Shown: piece after piece, positions 35,112 through 47,711 of the stretch | Numbering within the stretch: position 1 is the stretch's first letter | Layout: each line of letters starts with the position of its first letter | IMG/VR virus record: IMGVR_UViG_3300010160_000047 | Location: 1,789 to 65,788 of that record | Source: a virus | Taxonomy: Duplodnaviria; Caudoviricetes | Strand: one strand, 5' to 3' | Length of the DNA: 64,000 nucleotides | Translations under genes and position numbers: made by a program | Notes under the pieces: model-generated | What the model saw: the letters and a program-made list of their open reading frames with translations, nothing else | Databases searched by the model: none | What the model was told of the DNA's origin: nothing

Positions 35112-38100
35112 ATGGATATGAATACTATTGAAGATACTAATGCAGAAGTAGAAAATTCAATAAATGAACCTATATATAAATCCAAAGATGGGCAGATAAT
35201 TACACACTCACAATTACTTAGTTCTGGATATAAAGTAAACGATATAAACGCAGGAGTTACAGATAAAACCTTATCTCTAATAGGTGATACTAAAGATGAA
35301 GATCAAGAATTCCAATCTAAAGATGGACAAAAAGTTAATACTAAAACTTTATTAAGTTCTGGATATTCTCAAAAAGATATAGACGGTGGAATATTAGATG
35401 GTATCTTAACTCCCATTGAAAAAAAAAATCAAGTCCAACCATCCGAACCAGATATTCCTATCGTGGATATATCACAAGTGGATTCAAGTGGCTCACAGGA
35501 TGGCGCATCAAATGTTATAACACCCACACCAACAGAAACTCAAGCACCAATTGATGCTAGTGGTAGAATAATCTTTGACCAAAAAGAACCATCACAACCA
35601 AAAGTAGCAGCACCAAATGAACCTGCACCTGCAAATTCAATTGATTTAATTTTACAAGCCAATGATAATTTAAATAAGAAAGTAGGCAAAATAAAAGATC
35701 AAGCAGGAAGAGAGCGTGAAATAGACCAACCAGATTTAAAAGCACAAGATGAAGGCAAAAAAACATTAGACTATCTTAAAACATTTAAGATAGATACAGA
35801 TGATTTGTACAATAAAATAAAAGACTTACCTCCAGAAATATACAATGCTACTTTAGCAAAACAAGATGGCACAATAGATTATCCTTATAGCAAAGAAAAG
35901 CTATTTGAGATGTATCAAAACGAACCTGCAAAATTTACATTTACAGTTAACCACCTAAAAAATATGGCTGATATAATTAAGGGTGCAAAAGGAGCAACTA
36001 TAGATGGACAGCCTGTAGATAAAAGTTATTTTGGCAAATTGTATAATAATTTAAATCAATCAACAACACATAAGGGGTGGTTAAATAATAAAGAACAACA
36101 AATAGAATTAATCAATAAGTATCTTCCTTCATTAGATTCTAGAAGAGTTGCATTAGATAGATTAGAAACTAATGCATCTATGTATTACACTCCTGCTAAT
36201 CCAAATGTAATAGCTGATTACAATGCATCACCTTTAAAAGATAAATTAGACCCTGCTCAATTCGCTGCATTGCAAATGCAAAAAATGTTTAATCCTAAAG
36301 CATATCAACAAGCAATTGGATTTTTAGATGTAAAGCCTCAAACAGAAACAGCAGTAACACTAGGCGTTAGTTTTACTCCAGATGGTTTCGTATTAAATCA
36401 ACCAAAAGATACAGAAACTCAAGAATCAATAAATTTAAAAGTAGGTAAAGAAACTACTCTTAAAAATTTAGCTGATGCAGGTAGATATAATACCATAATG
36501 AATTTGCAATATAAAAACGAAAAAATTGCATCTCAATTAAAACAATTTCCTACTGATCAATATTCGGAATTAGTAAATAAATACAATACTAGTGCTGATG
36601 AACTCAAAAAAATATCAGCACAAAATGAAGAATTAAAAAATAATATAGAAGAAAACTTAGGAAAATATAAAACGCCGTATATACAGCAGTATAATGCTAA
36701 TATACAAAAGGCTAATTCTATTTCTCAAGAAATGAATAGCATTTCCGAGCAGTTTAAACAAATGCCTCAAGATAATCGTGGACAATTAATTGGACAATTT
36801 AATGACAATTTAGCCAAGATAAATGCTGTCAAAGATGATTATAAAAAAGATGCAGATAAATATCCTAATTATTTTAATTTAAAATACGAACAACAAGTTA
36901 AAGATTTTATGCAACAAACCGGATTTAATGCTGTTCAGTATGGCATAATGAAATTTGGTATGGGATTAATTAAAACTGGAAGGTCAATAGAAAACGTAAG
37001 TATTAGTTTATTTGGAAATAATGAAGATAAAATAATTCATGACTTAGCTAGTTATGGAGAATCTCAAGTAGAAGCACAAGATGAATATTTACCAAGCAAA
37101 TATCAATCTGGTAACAATTTAGTTTCTATAAAAGTTAGTGATGATTTAAAATCAAAATTAGATGCAGTAATTAGAGGCAGAGATTTATCAGATTTAAATA
37201 TAGGTGATAAAGATTTTTTGAAAAACATTTTATCACAAAATCAAGATCAAGTACATACAATTACAGATACAGATAAAAATGGTAAAGGAGCTAACTTTTG
37301 GAGCTACTCTACATTGTATGCTAATACCGGTATGTTGGGAGATATTATGTCATTTGTTGTACAAGCTGGAGTATTAACTGCATTAGGTGTTCCAGAATTA
37401 GCAGCATCTGCAATACCTCTATGGACTACTACACAAGATGATTTTAGAAAAGAAGGTATAGCTAAAGGATTAACTGGATCAGAATTGGATGGATATGCTA
37501 ATTTGAATGCTACCATTATGTTTTTGGCTGGTATGGTTACTCCTAAATTAGTAGTATTAAAAAAATTAGCAGGAATAGGATCGGCAGAAAGTAAAATGTT
37601 AGCAGGTATAACTGAAGATACATGGAATACAGTAGTAAATAAAAATAGACCAATAATAGATAGAATTAAAAATTCTGTACTTGCTACTACTAAAGAAGCG
37701 GCTAAAATGACTGGAACTTTTGGTATAGCTGCTCCTGCATTACAACAAATAGTTGGCAAAGAAATGTATGGCGATAGAGTAAGTTATGGTGATATCAAAA
37801 ATAATGTAATGGAATCGGCAGAACATTTATTAAAAAGTTCTGCGGCATTATTAGCCGTTGGTGCAATTACAAATTTCAAATCAACATCTCCAGAACAAAA
37901 AGCGGCATTGTGGCAATTAGGTGCTAATCCAAAAATTAGATTAGCTGAAATAGAAGATGCATTAAAGAATGGTGAAATAAATTCAACACAAGCAGATGCA
38001 AGAAAAAAAGTAATCCAAGATGCATCAAATATCATTCAAACAATGCCCACTAAAAATATGCAGGGCAAACCTTTGACAGATAAACAAAGAGTAGATTACT

Positions 38101-41100
38101 TCTACAATTTACTTATTCAAGATAAAGCAAAAACAGAAAAGAAAAGTTTACCAATACAACAAGTAAAGAAAATTGAATATGCTGAAATGGTTGCTGACCA
38201 TTTGAATAATTTAATAGTTGATCCACAAGATGAAACTAAATTAAATGGTAGAATAAAAGAACTTAATAAAATATTAAAAGACAATGTAGATGATATTGAT
38301 GCTAAATCAGAACTTGATGCCATTAATATTCATCTTGAAAATTTAGCGCAAGAAAAAGAACCAACAAAAACTGCTGAAGAAATACTAACAGGTAAACCTG
38401 TACCCATAAAAACTTTGGAAGAAATAATTTCTGAAGAAACAATACCAGATTTAACGGTGGGTGATTTATTAGATAAAACAGGTAAATATAAAGGTCAAGA
38501 TGGATTATTTTATTTAGATGGACAAACAGTTATTTTTAAAGTTGAAGGACAAAATAAGGAATATGAACTTGGTAACATTAATGAAATAAAAGATTCTTCT
38601 ATAAAAGATTTTGGCATTGAACATAAAGAATCCGTAGTTACTATAGGAGATAATGGAGAACTAATAGTTAGAGGAGAAGAATATAAAAATAGATATTCAG
38701 ACCCATTAATGGCTATAGATAGAGATGCAAATGGGAATGTGATTGGAGTTACTTTGGAAACGAAAAATGGCAATAAAAGAAGATTTAGAGGTAATACCGC
38801 AGAAGATATAGCATATCAAATTCATTTACAAGAAATAACTAAAAATAATGAAACAAGACAATTTGAAGAATTCATCAATGAACCAGAACAACAACAGCAA
38901 ATTGACATTGGAGCAGTTCCAGAATCTACCACGGAAGGTACAGTTACAACTAATGAGCCAATTCAACGAGAAAAAATTGAACCAATCCAACAATCAGAAC
39001 AAGACCTTTCTGAAGTAAAAATTCAAGAACCATCTGAATTAGATAAAGCCAAAGAAGCAAGATTAGCTGCAAAAGAAAAGCTTAATCAAATTCGTGGTAG
39101 ATTGGGTGTAATAAGAGATACTAAAGCAGAAGCACAAGCATTATACGATTATCACGTTGCTACTATTAAACTAGCAAAAGAACACATAAAAGAAGGCATT
39201 AAAACTCTTGAAGAGTTTGCAAAATCAATTGGAGAAAAAGTTACTGAACAATTAAAAACAGCATGGAATGACGCACAAAAAAACATCCAAACAATCAAAT
39301 CTGCCTCAGAAAGTCTTAAATATAATACAGGAGAAAAAGAAGGAATATCCTATCTATCAGAATCCTCCGATGTTGACTACCCAAGTGGAGGCGGAGTACA
39401 AGGTGAAGGGGGCAAAGTTTCTCAATCAATAGTAGGTGTATGGGGTAAAGATAAAAACATACAATTTACTGGTACTACTAGAGTAAAGAACGCTGCTGAT
39501 GTTGCACATATTATGCAGTTATTGGAGAATAAAACAGTAGAACACGCATTTGCTGTACACATAGATAAAAATGGCAAATCACATATTCAATTTCTTTCAA
39601 TAGGTGGTTTATCTGGAACTGTAGTTGATCCTAAATCAGTATTAGCCGGAGCGAAAAAATTCAAATCTGTTCGTACATTTTTGATACATAATCATCCATC
39701 TGGTAATATGCAACCAAGTAATGCAGATTTAAATATTACAGCTAAAATTAGAGCAGGATTAGAACCATTAGGTATAAAGATTGAACACGTTATTATGGAT
39801 ACATTCAGCAAAGAATATATTCATATAGATGAGTTAAATGAACCTAGAGTTTATAAAAGAGATGAAAACTTACAAGACAATGTAAAATTATCAACTTATT
39901 CAATGAATGATATGATGATTTTGTCTAAGCCTATAGTAAAGGTAAGACAAGCATCTGATGCAGTAAACTTCTTACAACAGTTAAGATTTACTGCTATGCC
40001 TAAAAATGCTATGTTGCTTTTAGATTATGGCAATAGCATTATAGGTAACTATGTATTTAAAGGTGAAATAGATTACGAACAAATAACATCATTTGTAGCA
40101 GAATCTGGTATAGGAAGCAATGTTATTTTTTATGGTAATAATTTTGATAAAGCTTTAATCTCAGCAATGAGAGATAAGTTAGTTGGTTTAGATATAAAAG
40201 TACTTGACCATATAGTTACCTCAAGTGATACTACTTCAGTTAATCAGTATTATGAAAGTATGATGGAGGCAGGGCATCTATCAGAAACACAACTTAAATA
40301 CGGAACTAATATAGTTAATGAAGTAGGAGAAAGAGATCAATATAAAAAAAATGCTACTGAAGCATTAAAAGATGTAATCTACATAAAAGATTATAAAGAT
40401 GGAGCTGCATTGGCACATGGAGTAAAAAATGGAGATCCCAAAGCAATAAAACAAATGGCCGAAGAAATGGCATCAAGAATTCCAAAAGATGCTACTATAA
40501 TTCCAATGGCAGGACGTAATGGTATTGCCGGTAATATGCTTTTAGTTGCAAATGAAATATCAAAAATAAATGGCAATAAAGTTGCAGACATAATAACTGG
40601 AGAAAAAAGAGAATCGCTTTATGATTTAAAAAAACAAGGCAGAGATATTTCACAAATGAATCTTGGCTTGAAATTAAAAGGCAAAGTACCAAAAGGGGAA
40701 ATTTATGTAATAGATAATGTAGTAGCGACAGGTAAAACTGCTACTGAAATAAAAAAATTATTACCAGATTCTAAAATATTAGTTCACTCATTAGATACAA
40801 AAGTACTTAATGAAACTTTAGGTGTATCAGAAACACCTACAACATCTGTAGAAGTTACTAGTGAAAATATTAATAAATTAGATGCAAAAAAGAAAAATGA
40901 ATTAGCAGAAAAAGCAGGTATTTTTTATCATGGTACAGTTGCTAATTTTAAAGAATTTATTGCAAATAAAATAAAGTCCGGAGCAATACAAATAAAAGGT
41001 GCTTTATTTTTTACTAATAAAAAAGCAAGAGCAGATGCATTTGGATTGCAATCATATAAAAATGTTTCAAGTGAATTATTTCAATTATCAAGAGGAATAA

Positions 41101-44100
41101 TAAATTTAAATGATTACGAATCATATAAAAATTCAACTAGAGAATTGCCAAAAGATTTAATGAACAATGTAAACAATTATTTCAAATCAATTGGGATAGA
41201 AGCAACAGTAAAAACAATAGGCGATTTAGCAAAAGCATATGAAAAATATAGAAATGAAAAAGAGGCAAAATATAATGTAAAAGCTATAAAAATAAAAGAA
41301 AGTGCAAAAATAAAAGTAATAGAAGGCAAAAAAAATTGGAAAGATACATTATCTAAATTAAATATAGAAACAGGCCAGTTAAAAAACGAGTATAAAAATT
41401 ACGATGTCTTAATATTTAAAAATATTGAGGACTATCCATTAATGCAAAATCCATCAGAAGAAATAACTAATGCAGATAATATTGTAGTATTAAATCCTTC
41501 TAAAATAGAAACCATAGAAAATGAATCAGATGCCATTTCTAATTTATATAATGAAACTTTAAGAATTCCAAAAGAAAAAAGATCAGAACAACAAAACGAA
41601 CTTATATCCTCAGTTAATGAAACATTAGGAGTATCAGAACTTCCCCAACAAAAAGGTATAGCACCAATAACTGAACCTAAAACAGCAGCAGAGAAAAAAA
41701 CAGTAGCAGATCAGTTAAGACAATTAAAATCAGGCAAAGGGAAAGCGTATGATGCAGTTTTAGGCGTTCCTGTAGCCATATGGGATGGAGCAGTAGAATT
41801 GATAGCAAAGGCAATAGAAGGAAGCACAGAAGTAGCTGAAGCAATCAGAAGAGGCATTAATTACATAGAGAAGAATCATAGAGGCAAATGGGATAAACAA
41901 AACTTCAATCAAAAAGTAATAGAATCATTAGGATTTAGAGGTATTCGTGTAAATGGTGAAGATGTGATAGTTAAATCAATGGTAGATAAACAAAGTGCAG
42001 AAGTTATCAATGGTTTTTATTCACCTCTTGAACAAGGCATATTAAATGCTAAAGCAGAAAGTTTAACTGGAAAAGAATGGGCTGATAAATTACAAGCAAG
42101 TACAGATGCAGATGAATTGAAATTTACAGGAATGTCAGATTTTCTTTCTGATAATGCAAACAAATCATTAACCAAGCAAGAAGTGCTTGATTATATGAAG
42201 AACAATAGAATAGAAATTAATGAAATTCAATTAGGAGAAGGTGAAAGATCAGAATGGATAAAAAAAGAAGATGGATATTATAATTTAGGTGATAAATCTC
42301 CAGCAGATAAAAAATATAGAATAGTAGATGAAGGAACAGAATATAATGAATTTAGCATATATAGAGGTAAGTCTCATATTAAAACAGTTGAAGGATTAGA
42401 AGAAGCAAAAGAAGAAGCAGAATATATAGCATTGCAATCGCAAGGATTAGAATTTATCAGTAAAAATACTAAATATTCTGACTTTCAACTTTCTGGAGAA
42501 TCATCTAACTACAAAGAAATATTAATTACTTTACCAATTACCAAACTTCCAAAAGGGTATAAAGTAATACCAAAAAGCGAATATATCCATGGTTCTACTG
42601 AAGGTCGTAGTAATTTTCTTATAGTTGATGATGAAGGATATAGTATAATGGGAGGTAACACTAAAGAAGAAGCCATTTCTGATTTTTTAAGTTTAAGAAA
42701 AGAAAGTGGTGGATTTACATCTCCTCACTTTGATGAACCAAATATATTAGCTCACATAAGATTAAATACAAGAGTAGATGCGGATGGTAATAAAGTGGTT
42801 CATATTGAAGAATTTCAGTCTGATTGGGGTAAAGAAGGCAGAGAATATGGATTTTTAACTGAAAAAGATAGAACAGAAGGATGGAAAATAGAAGAAGCAA
42901 CAGATAGATCTGGATATTACATATTTAATCCAAAAGGCAAGAAAGTTGCATTTGAATTTAATAAAGAAGATGCTGAACTAGAATTAAATGAATTAGCTAA
43001 TATAAGCAATCAAACCGGAGAACCAATGGGATCTACTTCTCCAGCCCCTTTTGTAACAGAAACTGGTAATTGGGTAAAACTATCGTGGAAAGTAGCACTT
43101 AAAGAAGCAGTAAAAGAAGGAGCAGATAAAATTACTTGGACTACAGGAGAACAACAAAATGATAGATATCGTTTAGATAAAGATGTAGAATCAATATTAC
43201 ATAAACCAAATTCAGATGGAACTTATCAGGTAGAAGTATTTGGACATAATGGAGGCACTCTTTATTTAAATGAAAAAGCTACATTAAAAGATATAGAATC
43301 AACATTAGGAAAAGAGATAGCTGAAAAAATTGAAAAAAACGAAGGCGAAACTGAAAAAAGAGGTAAAATTTTAGAAGGCGAAGATTTAACTATAAGTGGT
43401 AAAGGAATGAAAGGGTTTTATGGTTCTCCAAGTGAAGGTAAATTAGGTATTGTAGGGGATGTAATTAAATCTATGATTGGGCAAGAACCTAAAACAACTA
43501 TATTAAATAAAGGAGTAACAGAAAATTTAAAAGCATATGAATTTGATGGAACACAAGATATTTCTGATGTACCAGGGTCTAATTTTATTAATAAAGGCGA
43601 GTGGGTAGTTGAATCTCCAACTGGACTTAAAATGATAGTTGAAGCATCTTCAAGAGAAACAGCAATTCAAGAATTTAAAGATGCTGCAAGTGATGCGGAT
43701 GTAAACATACCTAGTGGAAACGAATCAGTTCAACATTCAATAGAAATAACCCCAGAGATAAAAGAAGGAGTTAAAGAAGGTATGGGTTTATTCAAAGCTC
43801 CATTTGAAAGAACTGAATTACAAAAGGCTCAAGAAGCAAGAAGAGCAGCTAAAGCTAAACTAGATGAAATTAAAGGAAGATTGGGTATTGCTAAAGATAT
43901 AGAAGCTCAGGCACAAGCATTATTTGATTATCATAAAGCATTAGTTGCTGAAGCAAAAGAATATGTAAAATTAGGAATTAAAAAAGTAGAAGAATTTGCA
44001 AAAGAAATAGGAGAGAAAGTAGATGATGCAGTAAAGGCTGCTTGGAATGAAGCTATGGGAATAAACCCTCCGGCTAAAGTACCTGAAGATTTAAAGCATA

Positions 44101-47100
44101 TAGCTAGGATGCTAGAAACTGATGAAGAATGGACTGGTATTAGTCAAGCAAGATTGAAAGAGATAGAAGAAGTTCGTGAATTATTTGAAAGAGAAAAAGG
44201 AACTAATTGGCCAACAATACAAAGAGAAGCATTAGAACAATTAGCAAGAAAATATCCAGATGAAACTATTTATGATGCAGCAAGATTAGAAGTAGAAATA
44301 TTAGCTAATAAATATGATAATAAAGAAGATTACAACCCAACAACTAAAGACTTAGCAGTCATTCAAGAATTTAAAAGACAAACTGAACAAAAAATAGATA
44401 AACTTAAGAATAATTTAAATTCTGAAAAAGATGTAATAAGAAATTTAGCAGTCCTTAAAATTGAAGCATATCAAGATGATTTAGTAAAAGTTGGCAAAGC
44501 TTCATTTAAAAGAGAAGCAGGTACTGCATTTGGATTTAGAGCTTCTGAAAGTAGAATGGATGAGAATTATGGTTTGCAAATAAGAAAAGCGCAATTAATT
44601 AGAGCAAATGATGGAGAAGAATTATCAAAAGAAGATAATGATTTTTTAAATGACCAATGGGCAAAGGAAAAAGAATTGATGAAGAAAGAACAACAGATTC
44701 GTGAGCAAGGATTAAAAGATGCTTTTGATGTACAATTGGATAAAGTGAAGAAAGATTATGAGGAGAAAATGAAATTAATGAAAGCTAAAACAACACCAGA
44801 AGTTAGGAAACAGGCATTATCAAAAACAGGTAAAGATGTTGCTAATGTAATTAGAAGATTAAAATTAAGAGGTACAAAATTAGACTTTACTATAGGCGGT
44901 TGGAACTTAGCAGTTGAAGGTGTTGCAAAAATAGTTGAAGCTGGATTTACAGTTGCAGAAGCTATAGAGCAATTAATTCAAAATAAAACTATCGGATTCA
45001 AAACAGCAGAAGATAGAAAAATATTTGAAGACAACTTAGCATCATTCATAAACAATTTAGATAGAAGAGAAACATCTTTGGAGGACATTAAAAAGATGGC
45101 TCAAGCAAATGGTGATACTACAGTTACGATTGATATGGTTAAGAAAGGATTGATTAAAGATTTTATCAACTCACACGTTGGCGAATTTGAAAATAAAGAT
45201 ATCTTAGAAGAAGCATACAATGAGTTAAAAAAGATATTGCCAGACTTAGATAGAAATGCTCTTAGAAGAGCAATGCTTAGATTAGATGAGTTCAAGACTC
45301 CGGATAAGAAAACAATAGAGAATATGTTGGCTCAAGAAACTCGTGCATTACAAAGATTATTAGAAAAAGAAGAAAACAAAAAAGTACAAGGAAATGAGCA
45401 ACAAAAAAGATTATTAGAAAAAGAGAAAAAAAGTATTCAAAGAAAAATTCGTGAATTTCAAAGAAAATTAAAAGAAGGAGAATTTGAAAAAGAAGAACCT
45501 GTAACATTAAAAAAACAAGATGCTGAATTAATTCAATTAAATAAAGAAAAGAAAGAAGCAGAAGGTGCATTCAGAAAAAAACAACAAGAATTAGAAGAAA
45601 AAAATAAACATTGGCTACAAAGATTTGGCGATACAGTAAGAAATACTTGGGTTGCATTTTTGATTGGTTCTCCAGTTACGTTAGCAAAAGTTGGATATAT
45701 GTCTTTAGTTAGACCTTCATCTGAAATAATAAGAAAAGCTGTATTTGGTAAATTATTTAATTTGATTTATCCAAATATTTCTAAAGCAGCAGAAAGAGGT
45801 GGAGAAAGTAGTGGATTAAGACCAATAGCAGAAGGATTAAAAGCATATTTTAGACAAAATACAGCAGCATCAATTGAAAAGAAATCTCAATTAGCAATTC
45901 AAAAATACGATCAATCTGCAAAAGCTTATTATGATGCTTTAAATACAGGTGCTGATACAAAAACATTAAAAAAATTAGAAAAACAAATGAATAGAGATTT
46001 AGAAAATTCTCTTTCAAATATAATTTATCAATTTATAGGAGGCAGTTCACTTAAAGATTCTTGGCAATCATTTATAAATAGATCAAATGAAATAGAAAAA
46101 CAATTTGGTAAAGTAGATATTGAATCAATAAGAGATGGAAATGCTTTAGATAAAATGAATTATATTATGGGATTCATTGGTCGGTCGCATTCAGCCGCAA
46201 AAACATTTTCTGGTAGATTTAGTTTTGCAGTATCATTTATGAGCCGTTTAGAAGGTGCAATAAAAGATGGTTCTATATCAGATCCAAATAAAATTATAGA
46301 AATAGCACATGAATCATATCTTGATTGGGAAAGAGGTAAATATCAACAAGATAATTGGCTTACTGAAAAATGGAATGAAATAACTGCCGCAATTAGAAAA
46401 AATACTTCTAAAAATCCAAAATGGAAACCATTTGATAAAGGGTTAGAATTTTTAACTAAATCAGAAGTAGCCATTACAAGAGTTCCGGTAAATGTATTGT
46501 GGGAACAAGTAGGTGAATATGCAAGAGGAGCATTTGTTGCGCCTATTAAGGCATATAGAGAAATTAAATCTGCTAAAGCACAAGCTAAAATGGAAGGATA
46601 TGATAAAGCAGTAAATAGTGCTGAATTCAAAAAAAGAGTTAATGAGATTGTTTCTACTATGGATCAAGACCAAGCAGCTAGAATATTTAGATTATTTACT
46701 AAAGGAGGATTGGGTCTTGGATTGTATGGCTTGACTTTAGTTACTGGATTAATGCATTTTGGAGTATTCCCTCACAAAGGACAAAAGCAAAAGAAAGAAG
46801 AATATGAATTAGAACCAGAAGAATTGAATCCGGGTCAAGTCATGTTTGGTGATGATAAATTAGGAGAAACTGCATCTAAATTAGTAGAACATACTCCAGC
46901 ATTATGGCCATCATTTATGGGATTGGGATTAGCTAAAATATATGCAGATGATGTAAAAGCAGGTAAAATGACTTCTCAAGCAGCATGGGATGCAGTTTAT
47001 ACTCATTTGCAGATTGTAGAAGGAGCAATACCTCAAACAAAAGTTTTCAGTCCATTAAATGTTATTAAAGGTGTAGGTAAAACTTGGGCAGGGAAAGCAA

Positions 47101-47711
47101 GTAGTTATGGTATGTTTGATAGTTTGATAGATGCAAAAGGTAACTTTATAGATAAAGAAAAAGAAGGATTGAAATTAACTAGTCCAGAAGTTTTGAGATT
47201 AGAAAAATATGGAGTTGCTCCTTTAGAATTAGGTACAAGAAAACAATACAAAATAGAAATAGATAAGACTCATCCAAAAGAAGGATTAACTCCAAAAGGA
47301 AAAGAATATGCATTAATGAATCCTCACGAATTTACTAAATTTACCGAATACAGAAAGTCATACATTAATGAAACTCTTAGAGAATTGTATAGAGCGGAAG
47401 ATGGTGCTTATATTGGAGTAGATAAAGATTTTAATCCAGATTATACTTATTTAAAACCAAATAGAACCATATATAATTTGATGCGAAATTTGGCAAACAA
47501 ACCAGTTGATGGAGCAACAATTGAATTAAACAAACAAGTTCTTGCTGAAATAATGCCAATAATAATTAGTCAATCTTCAATAGTTGCAAAAAACAAATTA
47601 ATAGAAGAAGGATTATTACCAGAATCAAATTATGAAGATGAAGAAGGGAATGAAAACATAATGACAATAAAAGAAATTATTCAAGATTTATATGAAAATA
47701 ACACGCCGTAA
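35112..47711 (+). CDS. 4199-aa polyvalent internal virion protein (JAB/RadC x2, PRTase, ADP-ribosyltransferase-like, EEFQSDW domain)
   Basis: HNHPSGNMQPSNAD (JAB, ~39687), degenerate second RadC ending VLDHIV, YVIDNVVATGKT (PRTase), FYHGT...FFTN...VVLNPSKI (ART-PolyVal-like, ~40923-41517), HFDEPN..HIR..IEEFQSDW (~42807). Confidence 0.9.
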   Translation: MDMNTIEDTNAEVENSINEPIYKSKDGQIITHSQLLSSGYKVNDINAGVTDKTLSLIGDTKDEDQEFQSKDGQKVNTKTLLSSGYSQKDIDGGILDGILTPIEKKNQVQPSEPDIPIVDISQVDSSGSQDGASNVITPTPTETQAPIDASGRIIFDQKEPSQPKVAAPNEPAPANSIDLILQANDNLNKKVGKIKDQAGREREIDQPDLKAQDEGKKTLDYLKTFKIDTDDLYNKIKDLPPEIYNATLAKQDGTIDYPYSKEKLFEMYQNEPAKFTFTVNHLKNMADIIKGAKGATIDGQPVDKSYFGKLYNNLNQSTTHKGWLNNKEQQIELINKYLPSLDSRRVALDRLETNASMYYTPANPNVIADYNASPLKDKLDPAQFAALQMQKMFNPKAYQQAIGFLDVKPQTETAVTLGVSFTPDGFVLNQPKDTETQESINLKVGKETTLKNLADAGRYNTIMNLQYKNEKIASQLKQFPTDQYSELVNKYNTSADELKKISAQNEELKNNIEENLGKYKTPYIQQYNANIQKANSISQEMNSISEQFKQMPQDNRGQLIGQFNDNLAKINAVKDDYKKDADKYPNYFNLKYEQQVKDFMQQTGFNAVQYGIMKFGMGLIKTGRSIENVSISLFGNNEDKIIHDLASYGESQVEAQDEYLPSKYQSGNNLVSIKVSDDLKSKLDAVIRGRDLSDLNIGDKDFLKNILSQNQDQVHTITDTDKNGKGANFWSYSTLYANTGMLGDIMSFVVQAGVLTALGVPELAASAIPLWTTTQDDFRKEGIAKGLTGSELDGYANLNATIMFLAGMVTPKLVVLKKLAGIGSAESKMLAGITEDTWNTVVNKNRPIIDRIKNSVLATTKEAAKMTGTFGIAAPALQQIVGKEMYGDRVSYGDIKNNVMESAEHLLKSSAALLAVGAITNFKSTSPEQKAALWQLGANPKIRLAEIEDALKNGEINSTQADARKKVIQDASNIIQTMPTKNMQGKPLTDKQRVDYFYNLLIQDKAKTEKKSLPIQQVKKIEYAEMVADHLNNLIVDPQDETKLNGRIKELNKILKDNVDDIDAKSELDAINIHLENLAQEKEPTKTAEEILTGKPVPIKTLEEIISEETIPDLTVGDLLDKTGKYKGQDGLFYLDGQTVIFKVEGQNKEYELGNINEIKDSSIKDFGIEHKESVVTIGDNGELIVRGEEYKNRYSDPLMAIDRDANGNVIGVTLETKNGNKRRFRGNTAEDIAYQIHLQEITKNNETRQFEEFINEPEQQQQIDIGAVPESTTEGTVTTNEPIQREKIEPIQQSEQDLSEVKIQEPSELDKAKEARLAAKEKLNQIRGRLGVIRDTKAEAQALYDYHVATIKLAKEHIKEGIKTLEEFAKSIGEKVTEQLKTAWNDAQKNIQTIKSASESLKYNTGEKEGISYLSESSDVDYPSGGGVQGEGGKVSQSIVGVWGKDKNIQFTGTTRVKNAADVAHIMQLLENKTVEHAFAVHIDKNGKSHIQFLSIGGLSGTVVDPKSVLAGAKKFKSVRTFLIHNHPSGNMQPSNADLNITAKIRAGLEPLGIKIEHVIMDTFSKEYIHIDELNEPRVYKRDENLQDNVKLSTYSMNDMMILSKPIVKVRQASDAVNFLQQLRFTAMPKNAMLLLDYGNSIIGNYVFKGEIDYEQITSFVAESGIGSNVIFYGNNFDKALISAMRDKLVGLDIKVLDHIVTSSDTTSVNQYYESMMEAGHLSETQLKYGTNIVNEVGERDQYKKNATEALKDVIYIKDYKDGAALAHGVKNGDPKAIKQMAEEMASRIPKDATIIPMAGRNGIAGNMLLVANEISKINGNKVADIITGEKRESLYDLKKQGRDISQMNLGLKLKGKVPKGEIYVIDNVVATGKTATEIKKLLPDSKILVHSLDTKVLNETLGVSETPTTSVEVTSENINKLDAKKKNELAEKAGIFYHGTVANFKEFIANKIKSGAIQIKGALFFTNKKARADAFGLQSYKNVSSELFQLSRGIINLNDYESYKNSTRELPKDLMNNVNNYFKSIGIEATVKTIGDLAKAYEKYRNEKEAKYNVKAIKIKESAKIKVIEGKKNWKDTLSKLNIETGQLKNEYKNYDVLIFKNIEDYPLMQNPSEEITNADNIVVLNPSKIETIENESDAISNLYNETLRIPKEKRSEQQNELISSVNETLGVSELPQQKGIAPITEPKTAAEKKTVADQLRQLKSGKGKAYDAVLGVPVAIWDGAVELIAKAIEGSTEVAEAIRRGINYIEKNHRGKWDKQNFNQKVIESLGFRGIRVNGEDVIVKSMVDKQSAEVINGFYSPLEQGILNAKAESLTGKEWADKLQASTDADELKFTGMSDFLSDNANKSLTKQEVLDYMKNNRIEINEIQLGEGERSEWIKKEDGYYNLGDKSPADKKYRIVDEGTEYNEFSIYRGKSHIKTVEGLEEAKEEAEYIALQSQGLEFISKNTKYSDFQLSGESSNYKEILITLPITKLPKGYKVIPKSEYIHGSTEGRSNFLIVDDEGYSIMGGNTKEEAISDFLSLRKESGGFTSPHFDEPNILAHIRLNTRVDADGNKVVHIEEFQSDWGKEGREYGFLTEKDRTEGWKIEEATDRSGYYIFNPKGKKVAFEFNKEDAELELNELANISNQTGEPMGSTSPAPFVTETGNWVKLSWKVALKEAVKEGADKITWTTGEQQNDRYRLDKDVESILHKPNSDGTYQVEVFGHNGGTLYLNEKATLKDIESTLGKEIAEKIEKNEGETEKRGKILEGEDLTISGKGMKGFYGSPSEGKLGIVGDVIKSMIGQEPKTTILNKGVTENLKAYEFDGTQDISDVPGSNFINKGEWVVESPTGLKMIVEASSRETAIQEFKDAASDADVNIPSGNESVQHSIEITPEIKEGVKEGMGLFKAPFERTELQKAQEARRAAKAKLDEIKGRLGIAKDIEAQAQALFDYHKALVAEAKEYVKLGIKKVEEFAKEIGEKVDDAVKAAWNEAMGINPPAKVPEDLKHIARMLETDEEWTGISQARLKEIEEVRELFEREKGTNWPTIQREALEQLARKYPDETIYDAARLEVEILANKYDNKEDYNPTTKDLAVIQEFKRQTEQKIDKLKNNLNSEKDVIRNLAVLKIEAYQDDLVKVGKASFKREAGTAFGFRASESRMDENYGLQIRKAQLIRANDGEELSKEDNDFLNDQWAKEKELMKKEQQIREQGLKDAFDVQLDKVKKDYEEKMKLMKAKTTPEVRKQALSKTGKDVANVIRRLKLRGTKLDFTIGGWNLAVEGVAKIVEAGFTVAEAIEQLIQNKTIGFKTAEDRKIFEDNLASFINNLDRRETSLEDIKKMAQANGDTTVTIDMVKKGLIKDFINSHVGEFENKDILEEAYNELKKILPDLDRNALRRAMLRLDEFKTPDKKTIENMLAQETRALQRLLEKEENKKVQGNEQQKRLLEKEKKSIQRKIREFQRKLKEGEFEKEEPVTLKKQDAELIQLNKEKKEAEGAFRKKQQELEEKNKHWLQRFGDTVRNTWVAFLIGSPVTLAKVGYMSLVRPSSEIIRKAVFGKLFNLIYPNISKAAERGGESSGLRPIAEGLKAYFRQNTAASIEKKSQLAIQKYDQSAKAYYDALNTGADTKTLKKLEKQMNRDLENSLSNIIYQFIGGSSLKDSWQSFINRSNEIEKQFGKVDIESIRDGNALDKMNYIMGFIGRSHSAAKTFSGRFSFAVSFMSRLEGAIKDGSISDPNKIIEIAHESYLDWERGKYQQDNWLTEKWNEITAAIRKNTSKNPKWKPFDKGLEFLTKSEVAITRVPVNVLWEQVGEYARGAFVAPIKAYREIKSAKAQAKMEGYDKAVNSAEFKKRVNEIVSTMDQDQAARIFRLFTKGGLGLGLYGLTLVTGLMHFGVFPHKGQKQKKEEYELEPEELNPGQVMFGDDKLGETASKLVEHTPALWPSFMGLGLAKIYADDVKAGKMTSQAAWDAVYTHLQIVEGAIPQTKVFSPLNVIKGVGKTWAGKASSYGMFDSLIDAKGNFIDKEKEGLKLTSPEVLRLEKYGVAPLELGTRKQYKIEIDKTHPKEGLTPKGKEYALMNPHEFTKFTEYRKSYINETLRELYRAEDGAYIGVDKDFNPDYTYLKPNRTIYNLMRNLANKPVDGATIELNKQVLAEIMPIIISQSSIVAKNKLIEEGLLPESNYEDEEGNENIMTIKEIIQDLYENNTP
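38848..39018 (+). CDS. candidate overprinted 56-aa ORF (+1 frame inside the giant gene)
   Basis: MKQDNLKNSSMNQNNNSKLTLEQFQNLPRKVQLQLMSQFNEKKLNQSNNQNKTFLK, with AACTAAAAATA before the ATG. Confidence 0.45.
   Translation: MKQDNLKNSSMNQNNNSKLTLEQFQNLPRKVQLQLMSQFNEKKLNQSNNQNKTFLK
39268..39432 (+). CDS. candidate overprinted 54-aa ORF (+1 frame inside the giant gene)
   Basis: MTHKKTSKQSNLPQKVLNIIQEKKKEYPIYQNPPMLTTQVEAEYKVKGAKFLNQ, ending just before the JAB domain. Confidence 0.4.
   Translation: MTHKKTSKQSNLPQKVLNIIQEKKKEYPIYQNPPMLTTQVEAEYKVKGAKFLNQ
40809..41639 (+). repeat. 24-bp direct repeats (NETLGVSE) flanking the ART-like module
   Basis: AATGAAACTTTAGGTGTATCAGAA (40809-40832) vs AATGAAACATTAGGAGTATCAGAA (41616-41639), 22/24 identical. 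Confidence 0.85.

Follow-up and report, generated by a model that had tools for sequence, protein, structure and literature searches.

The giant virion gene and its +1 reading frames

The DNA analysed here (the window) is a stretch of 64,000 nucleotides from a virus assigned to the Caudoviricetes, and makes up most of the 65,788-bp IMG/VR record IMGVR_UViG_3300010160_000047 (positions 1,789 to 65,788), with a G+C content of about 30%. On its plus strand the list of open reading frames (ORFs) places a gene (35112..47711, frame 0) for a multidomain virion protein of the polyvalent type with 4199 amino acids (aa); the gene lies in the structural module, 3' of the genes for the terminase, the portal and virion proteins. 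Within this host gene, and on the same strand, two ATG-initiated ORFs are found in the +1 frame: ORF1 (38848..39018), the subject of this report, which has 56 aa, is net basic and lies over frame-0 aa 1246-1302, and ORF2 (39268..39432), which has 54 aa. The initial annotation, made by a model from the letters of the sequence, had described the pair as flanking a helical repeat just upstream of a JAB domain. The coordinates, lengths and ATG starts of both ORFs are confirmed, as is their position on either side of the repeat, with the JAB match downstream.

ORF1 and ORF2 are the two longest +1 ATG-ORFs of the host gene, the third having 32 aa, among 461 stop-to-stop spans in this frame with a mean of 8.1 codons. 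Their lengths were compared with those in 2000 shuffles each of codon permutation and of synonymous shuffling, in which the protein is kept. The probability that the longest +1 ATG-ORF has at least 56 aa was 0.267 under codon permutation and 0.116 under synonymous shuffling, and the probability that the second longest has at least 54 aa was 0.059 and 0.009, respectively. With the ORF1 span set aside, the 54-aa ORF has a probability of 0.118 under synonymous shuffling and of 0.351 under whole-gene permutation. The +1 ORF lengths by themselves are within chance, so that neither ORF stands out by length alone, and the codon-shuffling check proposed in the initial annotation leaves both inside shuffle expectation. 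From the protein and the codon usage of the gene, 3.58 stops are expected in the +1 frame across ORF1 and 3.00 across ORF2, and the probability of an open frame is 0.006 and 0.008, respectively, for spans that are post-hoc picks among thousands. Since this many stops are still expected, the composition of the linker alone does not explain the openness, and the earlier proposal that linker sequence in the main frame keeps the +1 frame open is only partly right.

Comparisons bearing on +1 constraint in ORF1 and ORF2

DNA from relatives was obtained in scans with an alignment of module A (38433..38867), the frame-0 domain at the end of which ORF1 begins. These gave 24 loci from IMG/VR, seven from JGI metagenomes and one from a genome collection. 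The linker type seen in the window is present in half of the 32 loci (L001-L004, L020-L030, L032), and in all 16 of these the +1 frame is open and a peptide of this kind can be recognised; the linker of the remaining 16 (L005-L019, L031) is of another type, cannot be aligned there and lacks the peptide. Three loci (L021, L025, L029) were dropped as duplicates, their translations being identical to those of L020, L001 and L004 over 150 codons, which leaves a 14-locus set consisting of the window and 13 non-identical relatives. The +1 frame is open in the window and in 13/13 of these relatives, over spans of 41-85 codons. The per-locus probability of an open frame is 0.0014-0.25, and the log10 values sum to -19.8 for loci that are related and span ends that were chosen post hoc. 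The +1 translations (alignment A2) share the motif [ML]-x-x-[FL]-[QK]-x-L-[PT]-[KR]-x-x-Q-[LIM]-x-[LIVY]-[LM]-x-x-[FYLH], which in a tighter consensus reads [ML]-x-x-[FL]-Q-K-L-P-[KR]-K-x-Q-L-x-[LI]-[ML]-x-x-F.

The codon alignment of the 14 loci was guided by frame 0 and is hence biased toward frame 0. Nucleotide identity at codon positions 1, 2 and 3 is 0.64, 0.71 and 0.39 in module A, and 0.47, 0.49 and 0.63 in the motif part, and the third position is better conserved than the first in 14 of 20 motif codons versus 4 of 67 module-A codons (Fisher p 1.6e-8). The synonymous-constraint analysis in homologues that the initial annotation had suggested therefore comes out in favour of ORF1, the third positions of frame 0 being the best conserved in its core. 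Mean BLOSUM62 scores give the same order, with 1.78 in the +1 frame versus 0.55 in frame 0 over the motif, and -0.09 versus 2.56 over module A. In an ungapped block of 20 core codons from the 14 loci, the sense +1 frame scores 2.55, with an identity of 0.44 and no stops; frame 0 scores 0.73 (identity 0.24), the +2 frame 0.37, and the three antisense frames at most 0.98, with 3-20 stops across the 14 loci. The invariant leucines of the +1 frame are encoded by CTA, CTG, CTC, TTA and TTG in the different loci, the prolines by CCA, CCG and CCC and the arginines by CGG, CGC, AGA and AGG, and the frame-0 residue at these conserved sites varies between S, A, T, P, I, V and D. With the +1 residues kept through differing codons while frame 0 varies, the selection is on the +1 protein; neither frame 0 nor the DNA or an RNA fold is its target.

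Our comparisons show purifying selection for +1 amino acids over about 22 codons (38902..38973, plus strand), where frame 0 does no more than stay open. This constrained core (LTLEQFQNLPRKVQLQLMSQFNEK) is supported by the six-frame comparison, the codon families and the variation in a close strain, and is predicted to form a helix, a Leu-Pro kink and a second helix. The segment that the initial annotation had picked out as protein-like (LTLEQFQNLPRKVQLQLMSQF) is precisely this conserved part of ORF1. The core is partly overlapped by a frame-0 motif, IQREKIEP (38961..38984), which has the consensus VQREKIEP in an alignment of 12 homologues (A1). Frame-0 scores climb again at alignment codons 114-118, just past the +1 core, and as IQREKIEP is kept in frame 0 directly 3' of that core, the frames alternate in carrying the constraint. 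IQREKIEP may be a processing or recognition site. Wider scans added no loci: an IMG/VR scan with alignment A3 gave 72 pattern matches, of which the three confirmed were all already known, and a scan of 401 Bacteroidota genomes with the +1 motif gave one match, the genome already known. No copy of the motif in frame 0 was found in 48 proteins except P0046-P0048 (see below), nor was there one in the other frames of the window or the loci.

A near-identical strain confirms this independently. All or parts of 38400-39500 are contained in 24 public runs, mostly freshwater or lake metagenomes, and contigs of four DNA runs (X3, X9, X13, X17) were aligned to this segment; the one RNA run, X20, has a word share of 0.16. 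Thirty single substitutions, all from the long (19.6-kb) X3 contig, were classified. Inside the ORF1 core, four of five substitutions are silent in the +1 frame (the fifth is E>Q) and none of the five is silent in frame 0, versus 2/25 and 16/25, respectively, outside it (Fisher p 0.0026 for +1 silence and 0.014 for frame-0 silence). A clustered change at 38916-38926 turns VPEST into IPTIT in frame 0 and FQNLP into FQQLP in the +1 frame, where two codon changes are silent. The sole substitution in the N-terminal part of ORF1, 38882 A>G, leaves the frame-0 residue unchanged and replaces N by S in the +1 frame, which places the beginning of the constraint near 38902.

Sampled gene starts of the window (n=28) have A-rich, G-poor leaders without a Shine-Dalgarno sequence. 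When scored with a matrix of these 28 starts, the context of the ORF1 AUG reaches 3.45 bits, which puts it at the 98.3rd percentile among 302 internal ATGs and higher than 32% of real starts; the context of the ORF2 start reaches -0.59 bits, below 96% of real starts. The A-rich start context of the initial annotation is thus found at ORF1 and not at ORF2. From one to four ATGs are present 5' of the core in 14/14 loci, the GC-richer ones included. A codon-choice test for keeping the ATG gave a probability product of 10^-1.82 over loci that are related, which is weak evidence because the ATG arises from conserved frame-0 [ND]-[EGA] pairs.

The predicted ORF1 peptide consists of about 18 unconstrained N-terminal residues, the conserved core and a variable basic tail. 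AlphaFold2 (AF2), run on the 14-sequence alignment, predicts a helix at residues 21-26, the Leu-Pro kink and a helix at residues 29-52, with a predicted local distance difference test score (pLDDT) of 95 at residues 21-40. The flanks of the core are of low complexity and basic, which is partly a by-product of the acidic linker in frame 0, because GAA is read in the +1 frame as AAx. A profile built from the 14 peptides was compared with 1.84 billion proteins and matched three. P0046 (49 aa) has the same build as the ORF1 peptide, and P0047 (78 aa) and P0048 (126 aa) have the motif in frame at the C-terminus, after unrelated N-terminal sequence. No relatives of P0047 were found, and the N-terminal parts of P0047 and P0048 have no significant likeness to module A. 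For the ORF1 peptide itself there was nothing above noise in Pfam or PHROGs and no usable match in the ESM Atlas, and the best match in a profile search of the PDB, to RNA15, was not significant (E 0.091). Co-folding of module A (alignment A4) with the peptide (A2) gave a score of 0.04, a 'no answer' that is evidence neither way.

The reading of ORF2 is based on two comparisons, one with a distant homologue and one with a close strain. Frame 0 under ORF2 encodes a conserved leader of the JAB module, ..EG[IV]S[YF]LSES..DY..[VI]Q..G....[VI]W.K.K[ND].QF.GTT, which is present in most of the 18 proteins listed. Against L037, the only homologue at the DNA level (51% aa identity), the BLOSUM62 score is 0.91 in frame 0 and 0.09 in the +1 frame, and codon-position identities of 0.38/0.47/0.44 have no +1 pattern; the frame is open in L037 too, but the probability of an open frame there is 0.30. 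Six substitutions distinguish the close strain, and four of these alter the +1 residue (T>K, S>L, E>A, K>R) and three are silent in frame 0. Relatives of ORF2 were not found in a tblastn search against phages, where none of the nine records spans the first 68 query residues (the ORF2 part), nor in 401 Bacteroidota genomes at E<=1e-20 (0/401), and a degenerate pattern of ORF2 found a single IMG/VR locus, L033. We judge that ORF2 is probably an accidental open frame over the frame-0 leader of the JAB module. The initial annotation had allowed that the second ATG may be incidental, and this caveat agrees with the lack of +1 constraint, the weak start and the unremarkable length. Its description of the pair as overprinted mini-genes is supported for ORF1, which has the signature of +1 purifying selection, and is not supported for ORF2.

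Module A, the cargo junction and the JAB domain

Module A is a frame-0 domain of about 140 aa with 13 invariant columns in an alignment of 17 sequences (A4). It forms the final part of the conserved N-terminal core, and the start context and the AUG of ORF1 lie in its last codons. AF2 predicts a beta-rich fold of small beta units with a long C-terminal helix (AEDIAYQIHLQEITKNNE), at a mean pLDDT of 80.1. It has no Pfam or PHROG match, Foldseek found nothing in the PDB at E<=1e-3, and a search of BFVD gave one unnamed match (E 8.3e-7). Module A may be an undescribed domain of polyvalent proteins.

A BLAST search with aa 1180-1600 against the homologues revealed a mosaic. The sequence up to about aa 1306 matches, among others, P0016 (86%), P0024 (76%) and P0007 (72%), in matches that for these three end at about aa 1306-1346, and the helical repeat and JAB domain match P0002 (88%), in a match that begins at aa 1306. 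This switch at about aa 1306 places ORF1 (aa 1246-1302) at the end of the upstream unit. At the DNA level, the strain contigs and homologue breaks define a module junction (39012..39019) that coincides with the ORF1 stop (39016-39018). The X3 contig aligns to 38400-39019 and again to 39012-39500, the two matches being separated by about 257 nt that are particular to it, and the contigs of X9 and X13 diverge at 39019 and 39012, respectively.

The RadC-like JAB domain (39486..39800, plus strand, frame 0, aa 1459-1563) matches Pfam PF04002 (E 9.9e-20, 71.1 bits versus a gathering cut-off of 22.1) and PHROG 10276. A profile of the +1 motif has one match each in G001-G004, the records of L001-L004 (4/5 records searched), and the JAB region has no match in G001-G005 (0/5). 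G007, the single JAB-bearing IMG/VR provirus found, has neither the motif nor module A. The presence of the motif without JAB in G001-G004 and of JAB without the motif in G007 shows that the motif is co-inherited with the upstream module and not with the swapped effector. These distributions show the ORF1 segment as an element that occurs once per genome, is inherited with module A independently of the JAB domain, and ends the conserved core where the cargo modules begin to differ. The initial annotation had proposed an overprinted effector-immunity system in which cognate inhibitors travel with each swapped module. The pairing of motif and effector that this entails is broken in both directions in G001-G004 and G007, and ORF1 follows module A. 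At the second copy of the helical repeat the longest +1 ATG-ORF has only 23 aa (43537-43608) and nothing there is like ORF1.

The helical repeat, of about 80 aa, is present in two copies in the 4199-aa protein (~39036-39275 and ~43815-44054), and copy 1 (aa 1306-1404) aligns to two sites in the homologue P0002, with 88% and 55% identity. In total 45 large homologues of the giant protein were found, and the Pfam domains among them include SNF2, methylase, ParB-like and LPD domains. Near the 5' end of the giant gene there is a run of ten A (35419-35428), after which comes a +1 ORF of 34 aa that starts with TTG (35416-35520). A blastn search with 38499-39899 found no homologous DNA in GenBank phages, and a single-protein scan of IMG/VR gave zero confirmed loci. 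One relative, L032, is a locus in a Parafilimonas terrae genome contig. The start contexts and this prophage-like relative suggest that these freshwater phages have Bacteroidota hosts.

Interpretation and comparison with known systems

We consider it likely that ORF1 is a genuine coding sequence that overlaps the host gene on the same strand and occupies the +1 frame of the acidic inter-domain linker downstream of module A. Translation would begin independently at the AUG at 38848, in an A-rich, G-poor context without a Shine-Dalgarno sequence, like that of the phage's own genes. The product would be a basic peptide of about 56 aa in which an amphipathic helix, the Leu-Pro kink and a second helix dock onto a partner. 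Our best guess is that it is a small accessory factor for the assembly, packaging or delivery of the core of the giant protein. We do not take it for an effector-specific antidote; it may be a general chaperone. Several points weigh against this interpretation. The N-terminal 18 aa of ORF1 have no +1 constraint, which means that the core could be reached in another way, for example by a frameshift, and the conserved frame-0 residues K-[ND]-N-E largely account for the AUG and for the A-rich context around it. The 16 of 32 module-A loci that have another linker without the motif indicate that module A can do without the motif. The proteins P0046-P0048 are all singletons, from contigs of 933-3112 nt. 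As the peptide has no family, fold or partner match, the proposed role is a guess. Finally, the phage is known from metagenomes alone, and we infer the translation of ORF1 from its sequence.

Recoding would account directly for the confinement of the constraint to the C-terminal half of the +1 ORF. Some ribosomes would shift to the +1 frame after the upstream +1 stop (38842-38844) but before about 38900, and produce a truncated, cargo-less isoform (about 1250 aa, made up of the core and module A) that ends in a helix-kink-helix tail. The site sits exactly at the boundary of core and cargo, and the motif forms the C-terminal tail of P0047 and P0048, the only two predicted proteins with other N-termini. 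We nevertheless regard recoding as unlikely. No conserved slippery or hungry-codon site is seen by eye in the 14-locus alignment, for which no formal search was made; the RNA fold of 38820-39030 has a minimum free energy z-score of -0.36, that is, no stable structure, and Rfam has no match within 38000-40000. The AUG is in a context like that of real starts in all loci, and +1 shifts of this kind are rare in bacteria. If it did take place, recoding would set a fixed ratio in the virion between a cargo-less 'structural' ejection protein and the full-length, effector-carrying protein, a translational stoichiometry switch in polyvalent proteins with a tail motif shared with the small proteins P0047 and P0048.

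The remaining explanations have far less to recommend them. That the two ORFs encode inhibitors or chaperones cognate to the effectors next to which they are nested, and travel with the modules, is very unlikely, and we regard cognate pairing as largely refuted by the occurrence of ORF1 without JAB and of JAB without ORF1, by downstream neighbours that vary among relatives while the peptide is unchanged, and by the absence both of +1 constraint in ORF2 and of a counterpart at the second helical repeat. It draws on the location of ORF1, which stands at the entrance of the variable cargo region and ends at the module junction, and on the small, conserved and, from the AF2 model, probably partner-binding peptide. 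The chance that both ORFs are fortuitous is smaller still. The acidic frame-0 linker, poor in Leu, Ile, Val and Met, in an AT-rich genome would open the +1 frame, and similarity in that frame would be a by-product of frame-0 conservation. Such an origin agrees with ORF lengths within shuffle expectation and with AUGs that derive from [ND]-[EGA] codon pairs, and it fits ORF2 fully. In the ORF1 motif, however, frame 0 is the less conserved frame, the core substitutions fall on frame-0 first positions, and Leu and Arg are kept across codon families. For the ORF1 core, chance is refuted by the codon-position, BLOSUM62, codon-family and strain data. Least probable of all is that an antisense gene is what is conserved, or the nucleic acid itself, whether as a recombination or cassette-exchange site, as an RNA structure or as an internal promoter. 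The segment does adjoin a recombination junction, and a minus-strand ORF of 55 aa with a TTG start (38826..38993) is in phase with frame 0 and overlaps the conserved core. A constraint on nucleic acid is at odds with the period-three variation, with amino acids kept through different codons and with the fold and Rfam results given above; the low scores of the antisense frames and their stops in relatives indicate that the antisense frame is not the constrained one.

If ORF1 is the coding sequence that we propose, a second message, not visible to gene callers, lies in the linker of the largest virion protein and has been kept by a lineage present in many freshwater metagenomes and in one Parafilimonas terrae contig. 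It would mark the point at which the conserved core of a polyvalent protein gives way to exchangeable cargo, and the junction peptide would be a concrete experimental handle on the packaging, dosing or processing of giant proteins. The result also corrects a tempting effector-immunity reading of such a locus, and the locus would be a clear case from nature of overprinting in a large double-stranded DNA (dsDNA) phage, with all of the constraint on the new frame and the host frame left only to remain open, and hence suited to the calibration of overlapping-gene detectors.

Programmed frameshift isoforms are known for phage structural genes, for example lambda G/GT and the +1 shifts of the Listeria phage PSA. 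A recoded ORF1 would resemble these in that a single structural region yields two products, one of which has a C-terminus read in the other frame; unlike in lambda G/GT and PSA, no shift site was seen by eye and no stimulator was found, and the shift would make the product shorter, not longer. The bacterial sliding clamp is bound through the motif QL[SD]LF. The core of ORF1 resembles this in Q-[LIM]-x-[LIVY]-[LM], present in 14/14 loci, which we take as a lead only; it differs from the clamp motif in its pattern of about 19 residues, its helical periodicity, its invariant Leu-Pro and its predicted helical structure.

The product of the host gene, a very large multidomain protein with a RadC/JAB domain whose gene lies in a virion module, is of the type that Iyer et al. 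2017 (PMC5512222) described as polyvalent proteins of phages and conjugative elements. We found no account of a gene nested in such a protein: the words 'frameshift' and 'overlapping' are absent from the main text of that paper, and a search of the full-text literature gave one unrelated paper. Overprinted genes, in which a new frame arises over an existing gene, are described for small viruses and phages in PMC8227390, PMC3494269 and PMC4316641, where they are detected through conservation of the alternate frame and reduced silent change in the host frame. In contrast to these small viruses, the ORF1 phage has a dsDNA genome of about 66 kb with no obvious pressure for compaction. The overlap is confined to an inter-domain linker, so that the host frame is almost free of constraint there. 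The ORF1 peptide has no Cys, lipobox or hydrophobic signal sequence and so is unlike Rz1 and not an o-spanin, and its host gene belongs to the virion module and is not a lysis gene. The likeness to Rz1 within Rz, the spanin genes of lambda, is one of arrangement: in both, a larger phage gene contains the whole of a small one, which is read from the same strand in the +1 frame and sits where the larger gene is less constrained.

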